Source: Candidatus Woesebacteria bacterium GW2011_GWB1_33_38 (GTDB lineage: Bacteria > Patescibacteriota > Microgenomatia > UBA8517). Taken from it: 64,000 bases of DNA. The DNA is taken from NCBI GenBank assembly GCA_000990005.1, contig LBPF01000006.1, positions 33,615 through 97,614 on the forward strand, given 5' to 3'. The notes beneath the pieces were generated by a model. That model was given only the letters and a program-made list of their open reading frames with translations. It made no database searches and was not told where the DNA came from. A program made the translations under genes and the position numbers. This document shows, piece after piece, positions 8,312-56,040 of the stretch; the stretch's first letter is position 1; each line of letters opens with the position of its first letter.

Positions 8312-8872
8312 ATGAATTTGTATATTTTGGGGAAATTAAAAAAAGAAGATAAGAGGGCGGTGGCAATTGTGGGAACTAGACTACCTACTGAAAGAGGAAA
8401 AAAATTAACAGAAGAATTTGTTAAAGAACTTGTTAAAAACGAAATAACAATTGTTTCAGGGTTGGCGCGCGGAATTGACACAATTGCGCATCTTGCAGCA
8501 CTAAATTGTGGAGGCAGAACAATTGCAGTAATCGGCTCAGGTCTTAATGTTATTTATCCTCCTGAGAATAAAAAGCTGGCAGAGGAAATTTCAAAAAATG
8601 GAGCTTTGGTATCAGGTTTTCCATATGGCACAAAACCTGAGGGTAAAAACTTTCTGGCCAGAAATCAGTTGATTGTAAAATTATCAAAAGCAGTTTTAGT
8701 TATTGAAGGTAAAGCACGATCTGGTACAATCTCCACCGCTAATCATGCAGCTAACGATGGAGTAGAGGTCTTTGCAATCCCAGGCTCTGAAGCAACTGAT
8801 TATTTAATTGAAAATGGAGCAACACCTGTACAAAAGGCATTCGAGATAGTAGATTATTTAGATACATTATGA
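8312..8872 (+). CDS. dprA: DNA-processing protein DprA (Rossmann-fold core only)
   Basis: GLARGIDTIAH…AVIGSGLNVIYPPEN…FLARNQLIV…SGTISTANHAANDGVEVFAIPGS. Confidence 0.8.
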   Translation: MNLYILGKLKKEDKRAVAIVGTRLPTERGKKLTEEFVKELVKNEITIVSGLARGIDTIAHLAALNCGGRTIAVIGSGLNVIYPPENKKLAEEISKNGALVSGFPYGTKPEGKNFLARNQLIVKLSKAVLVIEGKARSGTISTANHAANDGVEVFAIPGSEATDYLIENGATPVQKAFEIVDYLDTL

Positions 8873-29281: not shown

Positions 29282-29611
29282 ATGAAAAAAGAGCTTAATA
29301 TTGGCTTGCCTGCAGGCAGGCAGGGGTTTATTCAGGCTTTGGGTGTTACCATTTACTGTGGTCTTGTTGGTTTGATTATGTGGAATGGTGATCAAATTTT
29401 TGGCAAAGTAGATACTTTTATAGCTCCAATAACTGCTTTATTGATGTTCTCAGTTTCTGCACTTGTTTGTGGCTTGTTAGTATTTTATAAACCATATTTA
29501 TTATTTTTTCAAAACAAAAAAGAAGAAGCTGTTAAGGTTGTTGTTGCAACTGCTGTCTCTTTGTTTACCATCATCCTCATCCTCTTTGAAGTAATGTATT
29601 TTGTGAAATAA
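29282..29611 (+). CDS. Small integral membrane protein
   Basis: Three hydrophobic segments; the 5' end contains the GC-rich palindrome (LPAGRQG). Confidence 0.45.
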   Translation: MKKELNIGLPAGRQGFIQALGVTIYCGLVGLIMWNGDQIFGKVDTFIAPITALLMFSVSALVCGLLVFYKPYLLFFQNKKEEAVKVVVATAVSLFTIILILFEVMYFVK

Positions 29612-45459: not shown

Positions 45460-46353
45460 ATGGATAAACTTCAAATAATTGATCAATTGGCAGAAAACTA
45501 TCAACTAACAGACAATCAAAAATCAATTTTAAAATTTTTAACTAGTAGAGATTCCAACGCTGAGGAAATTTTAAAAGCAACTAGAATTTCATCAGGCAGA
45601 ATTTATAAAATTTTAAGAGAACTTGAAGAATTTGGAATTATTAATAAATCTTTTAAAAAACCCAGTATAAAACCCAGTATTTATAGTATGCAAAATTTTT
45701 CTCAAAACATTAGAAATTTTGTGGATAGAAAATTAAAGCAAAGTTTGTCTTCTCAAAGTGCCATAATTTCCAATCTGGAGATGCTTGGGGACGAGGAAAG
45801 AATAGGTATTTTAACAGGTAATAAAAAAGAATCTGATATCCATATTATAAATATGTTTGAACAAGCAAAGTGGATTAGGATTTTGCATAAAAATGTTAGT
45901 TTACCTTGGTTTTTATATGTATTTTTTGATGAAAAGAAATTTTTGCAAATTAGGGAAAGGATTGCTAAACAAAGAGTAATTGGATCTTCTCCAAATAAAT
46001 TTGACCTACTAAATAAAAGAGAGGCTTATTTAAATTTATATAACACTAAAAATGTAGATCAAGTAATGAGCAGAGATGCCTTGTTAAAATATAAAAGTTT
46101 TCTTAAGAGCGATGAAATTGAAGTTATAAAGAAAAACCTATCCAAATGTCCAAACATAAAAATTCATGTTTTAGATCATTTGATTACACCTTTTTCTGTT
46201 TATTTATCTGATAATCTAGTTTTAATGCCAGTTTTTAACAAGTCAAATGAAAGTAAAATAATTAAAATGAAGGGAAGTGAATATGTTGATATTTATAATG
46301 AATATATCTCCTCGTTTATTACCAAATCACAGGATATGGTAGATATTCTTTGA
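45460..46353 (+). CDS. Winged-helix transcriptional regulator (TrmB/MarR-like N-terminus)
   Basis: N-terminal LTDNQKSILKFL…GRIYKILRELEEFGII wHTH; the start is taken at MDKLQ. Confidence 0.5.
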   Translation: MDKLQIIDQLAENYQLTDNQKSILKFLTSRDSNAEEILKATRISSGRIYKILRELEEFGIINKSFKKPSIKPSIYSMQNFSQNIRNFVDRKLKQSLSSQSAIISNLEMLGDEERIGILTGNKKESDIHIINMFEQAKWIRILHKNVSLPWFLYVFFDEKKFLQIRERIAKQRVIGSSPNKFDLLNKREAYLNLYNTKNVDQVMSRDALLKYKSFLKSDEIEVIKKNLSKCPNIKIHVLDHLITPFSVYLSDNLVLMPVFNKSNESKIIKMKGSEYVDIYNEYISSFITKSQDMVDIL

Positions 46354-46359
46354 ATCTTG

Positions 46360-46444
46360 TGGCTGGGGAGGGAGTCGAACCCTCACGAGGTGTTATCCTC
46401 ACAGGTTTTTGAGACCTGTGCGTCTGCCATTCCGCCACCCAGCC
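46360..46444 (-). tRNA. tRNA-Leu (anticodon CAA), type II
   Basis: Reverse complement: GGCTGGG-TG-GCGGAATGGCAGACGC-A-CAGGT-CTCAAAA-ACCTG-long variable arm-GAGGG-TTCGACT-CCCTC-CCCAGCC-A. Confidence 0.8.
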
Positions 46445-46674
46445 AATTCATGTATTATCTCACGACCAAACCCGGATTTAAAGAATCTTTCTAAATTTCT
46501 CGCCTCAAACCTATTTTTTGTTAATTCTACGTGAACTAATTGAAATGGAAGTTTATTTTTTGTAGTTCGGACGTTACCGACTTCGTGATCTTTTAGTCTT
46601 TTATTTAAGTCTTGTGTTTGACCTTTATAAAAAGCTTTATTATTTAATTTTAATATGTAGTTATAGTACATTAT
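46399..46674 (-). CDS. GIY-YIG nuclease-family protein (UPF0213/YhbQ-like); 3' end reads 46 nt into tRNA-Leu
   Basis: MYYNYILKLNNKAFYKGQTQDLNKRLKDHE…ARNLERFFKSGFGREII; the listed ORF is trimmed because its first 39 codons derive from a tRNA-fragment copy. Confidence 0.65.
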   Translation of the reverse strand: MMYYNYILKLNNKAFYKGQTQDLNKRLKDHEVGNVRTTKNKLPFQLVHVELTKNRFEARNLERFFKSGFGREIIHELAGWRNGRRTGLKNL

Positions 46675-46680
46675 GTCTGC

Positions 46681-46722
46681 CATTCCCTGCCTGCCGGCAG
46701 GCAGGCGCCACCCAGCCAATGA
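46681..46722. repeat. Duplicated 5' segment of tRNA-Leu (positions 1-23) interrupted by the GC-rich palindrome CCTGCCTGCCGGCAGGCAGG
   Basis: GTCTGCCATTCC[…]GCCACCCAGCCAAT versus the tRNA 5' end GTCTGCCATTCCGCCACCCAGCCAAT at 46423-46448. Confidence 0.8.
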
Positions 46723-46825
46723 CAGTATTTTACCACGTAGTGGCAAGCTGTGTTTATCATTTTTGTTTGCATTTATACTAGAAAGATTCAATTGACAAAA
46801 AAGTTAAAGAAATTAATATAAACAT

Positions 46826-46981
46826 ATGGGATTTAGATATGTTTGTGATATTTGTAATAAAGAGGCCAAAGAACATATTTCTGTAGGACGAAGCAACACT
46901 TTATTTTGTAAAAAATGTTGGATGGATAAAAAGAATTGGGAAAAAATTCATAAAGATGCAGTGAAAAACTCCAAATATTAG
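46826..46981 (+). CDS. Small zinc-ribbon protein (51 aa, CxxC…CxxC), not in ORF track
   Basis: MGFRYVCDICNKEAKEHISVGRSNTLFCKKCWMDKKNW…; TTGACA / TATAAA promoter-like hexamers upstream. Confidence 0.4.
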   Translation: MGFRYVCDICNKEAKEHISVGRSNTLFCKKCWMDKKNWEKIHKDAVKNSKY

Positions 46982-55272: not shown

Positions 55273-56040
55273 TGGGGAAGTGGGGTATTAAACCCCTATA
55301 ATATTATAGGGTGTTTTCACGGGAGTGATTGTAATTTTCACGGATGATATAGTTTGATACACAATGTGGATAAGTCAAATGGCTAGCTACAGGTGACTAG
55401 ATGTTAATAACAAGAATAATAACAACAAAATACTTCACCCAATATTCTTAAGTACGGCATGTGTAGTTCTCTTAACTATTAACTGTTAATTATTAACTTT
55501 AATATCATGTCGTACAATAATACTTTTACGACGTATAGTAAATTGTTGAGTGTAGTGTAGTAAATTAATTAATAATTAAAAGTTAAGAATTAATAATTAT
55601 TTTTATGATACTGCAATAAGGTTTTTCTTGCTGTTTTACTGCTATATATGTCTTACTACTAGTGTCTAATTTCTAGCTTCTAGTTACTTATCCAACTCCC
55701 CTAAATTTTATAAAACAGAGAAGTGTCTAGTTAGCCCTAGGGTTTACGTCTTTTATCCCTGAGGCCTTTTAAAATCGATTTGGTGAGGTCATATTTGTGG
55801 CCAATTTCTAATTTCTAATTACTCTAATTATTCTAAATTTTTTCACTATAGAGCAAATATTTAAAGTAAAAATCAATAATTAATTTTTAAATGTAAATTA
55901 AGTCTATTTCTGTCAATACTATTTGTTAACTATTAATTCTTAATTTTTAATTCCCAGCGGGGGACTCTCCCCTATTTTCCCATCTCTCGTGAAAATCGTG
56001 AAAATTTTGACAATTTAATTATTTTCTGTATTATCCAAAC
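55273..56040. repeat. 770-bp ORF-free AT-rich region dense in short direct and inverted repeats
   Basis: TTTTCACGG x2 at the left edge and its inverse CGTGAAAAT x2 at the right edge; AATTTCTA tandem motifs; the ATGTCGTACAAT motif recurs at 56645. Confidence 0.6.
55282..55318 (+). terminator. Terminator-like structure: GGGGT-ATTAA-ACCCC, then the perfect palindrome CCCTATAAT|ATTATAGGG, then a T-run
   Basis: Seen directly after the stop of 54499..55272. Confidence 0.45.

Follow-up and report, generated by a model that had tools for sequence, protein, structure and literature searches.

A minimal GIY-YIG nuclease gene and a GC-rich hairpin nested at a tRNA-Leu gene of a Woesebacteria genome and at tRNA genes of other bacteria

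The locus and its nuclease

The window studied here is a 64-kb stretch of DNA from Candidatus Woesebacteria bacterium GW2011_GWB1_33_38 (contig LBPF01000006.1; GC content 33%), and the element in question is a small GIY-YIG nuclease gene that lies between an intact tRNA-Leu(CAA) gene and a truncated copy of the same tRNA interrupted by a palindrome. All positions are window coordinates unless they follow an L number, which designates another locus. The intact tRNA, hereafter the live copy, occupies 46359–46444 on the minus strand and is called by ARAGORN and by the Rfam tRNA model RF00005 (58.2 bits, E=6e-12, 46360–46444); a lone orthologue stands at the syntenic site in L136–L138 and L140. 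Its nucleotides (nt) 1–23, GGCTGGGTGGCGGAATGGCAGAC, are repeated upstream on the same strand with 23/23 identity. This dead copy comes in two pieces, nt 1–12 at 46717–46706 (12/12 identical; acceptor 5′ strand and D-stem 5′ strand) and nt 13–23 at 46685–46675 (11/11 identical; D-loop to the first base of the D-stem 3′ strand). As the initial annotation had noticed, the pieces are separated by a 20-bp perfect GC palindrome, CCTGCCTGCCGGCAGGCAGG, at 46705–46686. The palindrome sits at the D-stem/D-loop junction, between tRNA nt 12 and 13, and its insertion is clean: the tRNA is colinear across it, with zero bases duplicated or lost. Along the minus strand, the order is a promoter-like region, GGCTGGGTGGCG, CCTGCCTGCCGGCAGGCAGG, GAATGGCAGAC, ATA, ATG TAC TAT with the rest of the nuclease open reading frame (ORF), and then GGCTGGGTGGCGGAATGGCAGACGCACAGG with the rest of the tRNA. 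The two repeats are 273 nt apart with only the nuclease ORF between them, and the neighbourhood of the locus holds no recombinase.

The window has no longer perfect palindrome than this one, which falls in the stretch of highest GC content. Dinucleotide-preserving shuffles predict 0 matches to the palindrome, and as DNA it is predicted to fold into a hairpin with an 8-bp stem and a 4-nt loop (−8 kcal/mol). When both tRNA copies were searched with ARAGORN and Rfam, only the live one was called; no further sequence within 46200–46900 reached the Rfam tRNA threshold, and for the upstream copy there was no second tRNA, tmRNA or intron, the sole extra Rfam match at E≤10 being a tmRNA at 11 bits, far below threshold. 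The upstream copy was therefore rejected as a second genuine tRNA gene, since it ends at nt 23 and the two programs call one tRNA only. Relatives carry either a lone tRNA or equally truncated copies at the corresponding position, and a search among them for a conserved, uninterrupted second tRNA, the arrangement expected of two genuine genes, found none. A group I intron in the tRNA was likewise rejected, as RF00028 is unmatched within 46200–46900 at E≤10 and the tRNA is contiguous.

The nuclease ORF (46671–46399, minus strand, 90 codons) lies on the tRNA strand and was delimited from its match to Pfam PF01541, seven homologues (P0001–P0007) with their alignment, an AlphaFold (AF2) model and fold matches. 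The conserved domain takes up residues 1–76 (46671–46444). The final 15 codons, like the stop codon (46401–46399), are encoded by tRNA nt 1–46, so the ORF does run 46 nt into the intact tRNA, as originally described. The 130-amino-acid (aa) ORF call at 46399–46791 (minus strand) had been suspected of being an artefact, and it is one. The PF01541 match (39.3 bits versus a cutoff of 22.6, E=8e-10) covers residues 42–107 only, and homologues begin with M(Y/F)Y.Y at the ATG at 46671, so the first 40 codons of the call are translated promoter region, tRNA fragment and palindrome. An alternative in-frame ATG at 46683 lies upstream, within the dead-copy piece at 46675–46685. Such extensions recur in the family, with palindrome-encoded peptides in the called N-termini of 27 of the 150 best representatives and tRNA-encoded ones in others.

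The family alignment has invariant residues Y5, Y15, G17, R25 and H29. When 88 loci are compared, Y5, Y15/G17, R25, H29 and the HVE Glu prove either invariant or conserved, and the family retains the motif Y..L..Y.G..R..H..E..KSG.GR. Not one of the 88 ORFs contains an in-frame stop, and the catalytic residues are present in all of them. In L239 (572–1000), a cassette with two palindromes in its tRNA-Leu fragment, five in-frame UGA codons fall on invariant Gly positions, so the ORF stays open only under genetic code 25 (UGA read as Gly), as befits a host with that code. Judged by their sequences, the ORFs are thus intact and adapted to the genetic codes of their hosts.

The AF2 model (predicted local distance difference test score of 92.7) has a β-β-α-β-α-α topology and consists of a bare GIY-YIG domain. 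In an hmmsearch of the PDB with the family profile, the matches were the UPF0213 structures 1zg2 (E=9e-12) and 1ywl (E=2.5e-11), followed by eukaryotic SLX1 at about 1e-3, with no match to UvrC or I-TevI. Foldseek ranked 1zg2, 1ywl and three Slx1 entries ahead of the I-TevI catalytic domain and UvrC, and the NCBIfam model for group I intron endonucleases (TIGR01453) scored 16.4 bits against a cutoff of 56. Sequence score, active-site residues and predicted fold together place the protein in the GIY-YIG nuclease superfamily. The profile matches, the fold ranking and the TIGR01453 score far below cutoff further assign it to the Slx1-like branch, and we describe it as a predicted minimal Slx1/UPF0213-type domain of 76 aa without auxiliary domains, in line with the YhbQ likeness first proposed. 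The minimal Slx1-like GIY-YIG branch was described by Dunin-Horkawicz et al. (PMC1564403); at E≤1e-10 it numbers 2,683 cluster representatives. A tblastn search of the window found no further GIY-YIG copies.

A homing endonuclease of the Seg/I-TevI type was considered and rejected, as the protein has 76 aa and no C-terminal DNA-binding domain, its 15-aa tail is encoded by the tRNA, and TIGR01453 stays below cutoff. The likeness to GIY-YIG seg genes of tRNA clusters drawn in the initial annotation therefore stands as an analogy of lifestyle and falls as a family assignment, because the protein is of the minimal Slx1/UPF0213 type and lacks a DNA-binding domain.

Recurrence of the layout at other tRNA genes

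A word-index search supplied the first relatives, the seven homologues P0001–P0007. A tRNA lies directly downstream in 7/7 of them, and the palindrome lies in an upstream fragment of that tRNA in 6/7. Two of the seven proteins end in translated tRNA-Leu 5′ ends (AEVVEWQTH and AGVVEW), and three start with peptides of the MVDLPAGRQA/G type, which are translated palindrome. A scan of one genome per species then found at least 231 relatives, of which 80 loci were kept; the recurrence counts cover these kept loci. Organism names are as in the records, although taxon names of metagenome-assembled genomes (MAGs) are often unreliable. Most kept loci are from Patescibacteria (Microgenomates groups, Saccharibacteria and Paceibacterota), with some from Flavobacteriaceae, Desulfobacterales and others, so that the layout is spread over several phyla.

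A tRNA on the same strand starts between −60 and +80 nt from the ORF end at 45 of the 80 loci. These downstream tRNAs cover 12 amino-acid types, namely Leu (with five anticodons), His, Glu, Asn, Thr, Met, Lys, Arg, Asp, Cys, Gly and Ile, and 10 of the 12 have a confirmed copy of the tRNA upstream. In 35 loci (31 from the species scan, the window and three of the word-index set), the upstream 170 nt align to the same tRNA that lies downstream, from nt 1 to nt 20–50 and mostly at 100% identity; the duplicated copy begins exactly at tRNA nt 1 in 30 of them. Across loci, the ORF ends between −26 and +46 relative to tRNA nt 1. Individual examples illustrate the range: the palindrome follows nt 12 of tRNA-Leu(TAA) in L002 and nt 22 of tRNA-Leu(CAG) in L004, the tRNA-Leu(CAA) fragment extends to the anticodon loop in L006 and L011, the tRNA is tRNA-Asn(GTT) in L007, and in L008–L010 the palindrome is absent and the fragment is a 9-nt vestige only.

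Between genomes, similarity ends where the unit ends: L073 and L121 share 90% identity over the segment −41 to +89 around the ORF, and L066 and L074 share 82%. Tandem units occur in L057, L087, L076 and L190, and L053, L061 and L119 are mirror images in which an intact tRNA is followed by the ORF and a 3′ remnant with a hairpin. The tRNA-nested nuclease unit is thus found in different genomic contexts and at different tRNA targets. Other elements can share such a site: at L043 (480–3014), a GIY-YIG cassette lies at a tRNA-Lys, the anticodon loop of the downstream tRNA-Lys copy is split by a group I intron (Rfam 86 bits) with an HNH ORF, and a serine recombinase gene comes next, so that three kinds of selfish element meet at one tRNA gene.

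Related Patescibacteria share the gene order DnaB, small ORF, TrmB-like gene, tRNA, small ORF and EF-P, which allowed the orthologous tRNA-Leu loci to be compared. In L136–L138 (TrmB-like protein 54% identical) and L140 (57% identical), the site is empty: a lone tRNA-Leu(CAA) has its own extended −10 promoter, and there is no ORF, fragment or palindrome. As these syntenic relatives carry the lone tRNA between the same neighbours, the cassette is an insertion relative to them. The empty sites, together with recurrence at 12 tRNA amino-acid types, bear out the original suggestion of an insertion or duplication by a small nuclease-encoding mobile cassette. In all nine independent assemblies of the source species the site is occupied and the locus identical. 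In two further loci, L051 and L063, the ORF and an intact tRNA stand between a 5′ and a 3′ remnant. The two remnants pair through their acceptor halves, which mismatch the intact tRNA, so a resident tRNA was split there and another copy has taken its place.

Compared with the lone tRNA-Leu(CAA) of L140 (1872–1957), the tRNA in the window differs at 9 of 17 D-arm positions, with compensating changes in the stem, and at one position from nt 27 to the end. The D-arm of the dead copy is the same as that of the live tRNA in the window, which bears on the idea of a foreign D-arm brought in by the cassette. A scaffold of the same species that contains an N gap (L129:2684–3252) joins the cassette to different upstream sequence; its tRNA 5′ part, GGCCAGGTGCTGGAATGGTAGAC, is unpaired with the shared 3′ half, as in a strain variant or a mis-scaffold.

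Two promoter-like sequences lie on the minus strand of the window. P1 (TAAACA-18-TAAAAT with TG, 46727–46756) matches the consensus, is separated by 9 nt from nt 1 of the dead copy and would drive the ORF. P2 (TTTAAA-17-GATAAT with TG, 46454–46482) likewise matches the consensus and no more, and lies at the same 9-nt distance from nt 1 of the live tRNA. It lies within the last codons of the ORF, GGT CGT GAG ATA ATA CAT GAA TTG (G-R-E-I-I-H-E-L), with the extended −10 box TGaGATAAT. The native promoter of L140's lone orthologous tRNA reads the same as the P2 string GTGAGATAATACA, and L002 and L049 have the P2 box at an equal distance. In geometry, P1 and P2 are like the promoters that the lone tRNAs of L140 and L136 have of their own. 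More broadly, a −10-like box lies 4–14 nt upstream of the dead copy in 18 of 35 loci (11 with TG), compared with 8.8% of random positions (2.2% with TG), and upstream of the live tRNA in 10 of 35. The predicted fold of the 5′ leader RNA is no more stable than that of shuffled sequences (z = −0.55), so, apart from the hairpin itself, nothing points to a dedicated structure in the leader. If the ORF and the tRNA of the window were transcribed together, cleavage by RNase P would take the stop codon off the ORF.

The hairpin within and away from the cassette

Across loci, the upstream copy is interrupted by a GC-rich insertion of 20–57 nt with the conserved ends CCTGCC...GGCAGG, and in at least 27 related loci the tRNA fragment upstream holds the very 20-mer of the window. 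Within the tRNA sequence, the hairpin is found anywhere between nt 5 and nt 32; the borders of the D-stem (nt 9, 11–12, 16–17 and 22) are where insertions cluster, and the hairpin lies about 8–13 nt from the truncated end of the fragment. A hairpin with the conserved termini occurs within 140 nt upstream at 30 of the 45 tRNA-adjacent loci, as against 5 of 4000 control windows. The density of exact palindromes within 400 nt of the ORF is 24-fold that elsewhere in the same loci. Of the two tRNA copies, it is always the dead one, and never the live one, that holds the cassette hairpin.

The protein tree groups by tRNA type and by hairpin type. The 20-mer belongs to the Leu clade (Cys included) and to the Asn and Lys clades, the Glu clade has a hairpin of 35–42 nt, and the flavobacterial Met clade has one of 28–30 nt, at times two per fragment and in one case nested. 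In palindrome-centred samples, the GIY-YIG family is the only recurrent neighbour of the palindrome; no other gene family was found recurrently beside it in those samples. The palindrome is a conserved, clade-specific partner of this nuclease family, and its presence is no chance extra insertion. A search for inverted repeats bordering the ORF in the tRNA-nested clades turned up complete hairpins alone, upstream and at times downstream, and never half-sites; clades that have no adjacent tRNA have their own hairpins on both sides of the ORF.

The closest association is seen in three Desulfobacterales/Desulfatiglandales loci from Desulfobacterales-type MAGs (L093:2366–2785, L088:2458–2785 and L126:1751–2078), where the ORF lies between the hairpin arms CCCGCCCGCCTCGCCTGAGCGAGC and GGCTCGCGATGGCGGGCAGG, about 327 nt in all. 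L093 also has two empty 47-nt copies of the same hairpin in tandem directly before the one that bears the ORF, which measures 326 nt with its arms. [quoted passage not shown] A hairpin-ended segment can also hold a tRNA: in L219 (1–200), a 108-nt element with ends of the hairpin type, CCCGCCTGCC...GGCGGGCAGG, encloses an intact tRNA-Val(GAC) and sits in the anticodon loop of a resident tRNA-Val, which itself has the 20-mer at nt 21/22 and a third insertion in its T-arm.

The palindrome also occurs away from the nuclease. A second, slightly diverged copy in the window, CTTGCCTGCAGGCAGGCAGG plus G (29305–29325), forms a 21-nt in-frame insertion (LPAGRQG) at the N-terminus of a small membrane-protein ORF (29282–29611, plus strand), and 12 homologues of that protein lack these 7 residues. 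Elsewhere, the exact 20-mer was found in 35 stretches of viral contigs, mostly of high GC content, and in at least 120 stretches of metagenome contigs; among the matches listed, 98 copies are in contigs below 50% GC, and only about ten of these are beside a nuclease or a tRNA. At 201 distinct palindrome sites, the flanks are unrelated and neither a strong target motif nor a target-site duplication is seen, with only a weak bias in which T is rare at −1 and A at +1. A fixed-length target-site duplication of the MITE type was accordingly rejected, because the window and most loci are colinear without a duplicated base and the copy at 29305 adds 21 nt.

In silico removal of the palindrome at metagenome sites never restored an ARAGORN-detectable tRNA, with the exception of L036, which indicates that the hosts of the palindrome are tRNA remnants and not complete tRNAs. 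The variable region of a tRNA-Met(CAT) contains the exact 20-mer in two high-GC viral contigs (L036:2239–2330 and L013:~8570–8660). The copy in L036, but not the one in L013, is still called by ARAGORN, as a tRNA of 92 nt, so the tRNA-Met of L036 may be functional with an extra arm.

Outside tRNA remnants, the 20-mer is often central in arrays of tandem repeats of about 7 nt (for example L012, L020, L143, L183, L186, L200 and L214); contigs with such arrays range from 29 to 68% GC, and the arrays have no recurrent neighbouring gene. L230 (5000–5538) has a more typical GIY-YIG gene of the UPF0213 type followed by two copies of a repeat, 147 nt from start to start, each of which contains the exact 20-mer and is not derived from a tRNA. 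The window has one further, AT-rich palindrome, an 18-bp perfect one at 55294–55311 (CCCTATAATATTATAGGG).

Proposed origin of the unit and its relation to known systems

Taken together, we consider that the locus is probably one copy of a widespread family of selfish nuclease-plus-hairpin cassettes that live inside tRNA transcription units. The cassette would consist of an approximately 230-nt gene for a bare Slx1/UPF0213-type nuclease, a truncated, promoter-proximal 5′ copy of the tRNA and a GC hairpin, present here in its minimal 20-bp form. The ORF would be transcribed from the tRNA promoter retained by the dead copy. The live tRNA would be made by read-through and RNase P cleavage and, in this lineage, also from the second promoter in the last codons of the ORF. 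Repair of a nuclease-provoked break, or local tandem duplication at a tRNA gene, could have produced the partial tRNA duplication, which would keep the tRNA working and so allow the element to disrupt a tRNA gene without killing the cell. Spread may be guided by homology, in a homing or gene-conversion-like manner, among tRNA genes with similar 5′ halves; the Leu clade would have moved in this way among five Leu anticodons and to Cys, whose D-arm is similar. The hairpin could be a terminal or non-autonomous form of the element and is a likely substrate structure of the nuclease. Slx1 is a structure-specific nuclease for branched DNA, with which a hairpin or cruciform substrate would fit.

Several observations weigh against this proposal. 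The empty sites are in fairly distant relatives, as the identity of the flanking protein indicates, and no within-species polymorphism of occupancy is seen among the nine assemblies. About 30 of the 80 relatives have no adjacent tRNA, and the tRNA-nested clades have their ORF outside the hairpin instead of enclosed by the two arms. About 90% of the exact copies in the metagenome sample are far from any detectable nuclease homologue, so the hairpin may move by other means. The promoters were called from consensus matches alone, and the mechanism of mobility, be it cleavage, transposition or homing, is inferred throughout. A 76-residue domain also has no evident means of sequence-specific recognition, and a model in which insertion destroys the homing site fails to explain immunity, because the live tRNA keeps the undisrupted sequence.

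A bolder version, which we put forward tentatively and rate as rather less likely than not to hold, is that the hairpin and the cassette are two forms of an undescribed class of bacterial mobile DNA. Such elements would be hairpin-ended, would make no target-site duplication and would carry as their sole gene a 76-residue Slx1-like GIY-YIG nuclease; they would split tRNA genes while supplying or restoring a working copy and take over the tRNA promoter. The exact 20-mer would be a non-autonomous form that has spread to hundreds of unrelated sites in DNA of 29–68% GC.

The alternative that survives best, although we think it unlikely, is that the hairpin is unrelated to the nuclease: an independent mobile sequence like repetitive extragenic palindromes (REPs) or GC clusters, tolerated in dead DNA, with the GIY-YIG gene merely sharing its safe havens. 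No GIY-YIG homologue lies within 700 nt of about 88 of the 98 listed low-GC metagenome copies or of nearly all high-GC viral copies, and the palindrome is also found in coding sequence, in tRNA remnants without the ORF (L175 and L192) and as the extra arm of the otherwise intact tRNA-Met of L036. An independent sequence would, however, leave several regularities without an account. The hairpin type follows the nuclease clade, nearly all upstream fragments carry a hairpin at a regular distance from the truncated end, the GIY-YIG family is its sole recurrent neighbour, and the ORF of L093 is nested between hairpin arms beside empty copies. Moreover, action in trans, as with REPs and REP-associated tyrosine transposases (RAYTs), would also give many distant copies.

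A host operon, in which the nuclease acts on tRNA or on tRNA-gene DNA in repair or processing and the truncated copy with its hairpin is a regulatory leader, appears improbable. It would fit the tight, conserved co-orientation and spacing of ORF and tRNA, the purifying selection on the ORFs and the fusion of a prokaryotic Slx1-like domain to a tRNA methyltransferase that is on record (PMC1564403). Against this, the cassette is missing in syntenic relatives that retain the tRNA and is associated with at least 12 tRNA types, not one. There are 5′ and 3′ remnants, mirror forms, tandem units and remnants with several hairpins, and a hairpin that wanders between nt 5 and nt 32 is unlike a conserved RNA leader.

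Still less probable is the decayed scar of an integrase-mediated island or prophage, with the 23-nt repeat as its attachment-site (att) duplication. tRNA genes are indeed classic integration sites at which the tRNA end is regenerated by duplication, and the related locus L043 adjoins a serine recombinase; but the repeats in the window enclose a nuclease ORF and nothing else within their 273 nt, in a neighbourhood free of recombinases, the duplicated part is the 5′ end from nt 1 with a length that varies from 20 to 50 nt across loci, and the same layout recurs at dozens of integrase-free loci. A chance or assembly artefact, such as a mis-assembled repeat or an adaptor-like palindrome, which the presence of one exact 20-mer in very different assemblies might suggest, can be practically dismissed, as nine independent assemblies, made from different samples and with different assemblers, show one and the same locus, the tRNA is colinear across a palindrome of which shuffles predict 0 copies, and diverged and longer hairpin variants evolve in situ, including the copy at 29305, which is mutated and kept in frame.

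The literature searched (on the palindrome, the LPAGRQ peptide, GIY-YIG, UPF0213/YhbQ and REP/RAYT/MITE topics, with incomplete coverage) gave no description of a tRNA-nested nuclease-plus-hairpin arrangement, and as far as we found, the cassette family is undescribed. In lifestyle it is like segB, a free-standing GIY-YIG homing endonuclease gene of T-even phages that likewise lies among or next to tRNA genes. SegB homologues in phages are significantly co-localized with tRNAs (PMC2330249; PMC13096335), and experiments in phage T6 showed that SegB drives the tandem amplification of a unit made up of a tRNA and segB (PMC13096335); the tandem units of L057, L087, L076 and L190 look similar. Seg proteins, in contrast, have about 200–250 aa with a C-terminal DNA-binding domain, whereas the protein here is a bare 76-aa Slx1-like domain. 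Their hosts are phages and not bacterial chromosomes, and a hairpin-marked partial tRNA duplication is not a Seg feature. UPF0213, YhbQ and Slx1 proteins have the same minimal domain without the C-terminal Asn of the UvrC/I-TevI lineage (PMC1564403). In the sources searched, the UPF0213/YhbQ family is treated as housekeeping or repair with no role assigned, and none of these sources links it to tRNA genes, partial tRNA duplications or cognate palindromes.

REP/RAYT systems consist of scattered short GC palindromes and a gene for the presumed enzyme flanked by cognate palindromes, the palindrome type being specific to the enzyme clade (PMC3116915, PMC2817692). Clade-specific palindromes and an enzyme gene flanked by its own palindrome type are found here as well, and on the bolder version given above the element would be the GIY-YIG equivalent of such a pair. 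Membership in these systems was nonetheless rejected, since the enzyme is GIY-YIG and not an HUH/Y1 transposase, the ends are CCTGCC/GGCAGG, and the tags GTAG and CGTC are absent. REPs have no strong tie to tRNA genes or remnants, unlike the cassette, and GIY-YIG is unmentioned in the REP/RAYT literature searched. Yeast mitochondrial GC clusters and the tRNA-flanking palindromes of Neurospora are short, tRNA-associated GC hairpins in AT-rich genomes; they are mobile, sometimes sit within genes without breaking the frame, can merge or be nested, and are suggested to have endonucleases as helpers (PMC4478555). These elements are organellar, with putative AG target-site duplications in yeast, whereas the insertions here are bacterial and clean. 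We know of no GC cluster with a dedicated nuclease gene nested in its hairpin.

Integrative elements that target tRNA genes resemble the cassette in that the tRNA stays functional because the disrupted part is duplicated. They differ in using tyrosine or serine recombinases, in duplicating, as a rule, the tRNA 3′ end and in spanning kilobases; the cassette has 273 nt and no recombinase, and its duplication covers the 5′ end, beginning at nt 1. The tRNA genes of Patescibacteria are also occupied by group I introns that carry homing endonuclease genes, so that hosts and targets are the same, and L043 holds both kinds; here, in contrast, there is no intron RNA and the ORF lies outside the tRNA.

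If our interpretation is true, the prokaryotic Slx1-like/UPF0213 GIY-YIG proteins, which form a large orphan family, would gain a biological role. It would also explain an annotation problem, namely the many database proteins that start with peptides of the PAGRQA or CLPAGR type or with tRNA-encoded peptides. The GC-rich palindromes of AT-rich genomes, long puzzling, would be tied to a dedicated structure-specific nuclease, a link that can be tested in vitro. For the genome-reduced bacteria that carry the cassette, it would mean that a minimal selfish gene can live in essential, highly expressed tRNA genes without being lethal.

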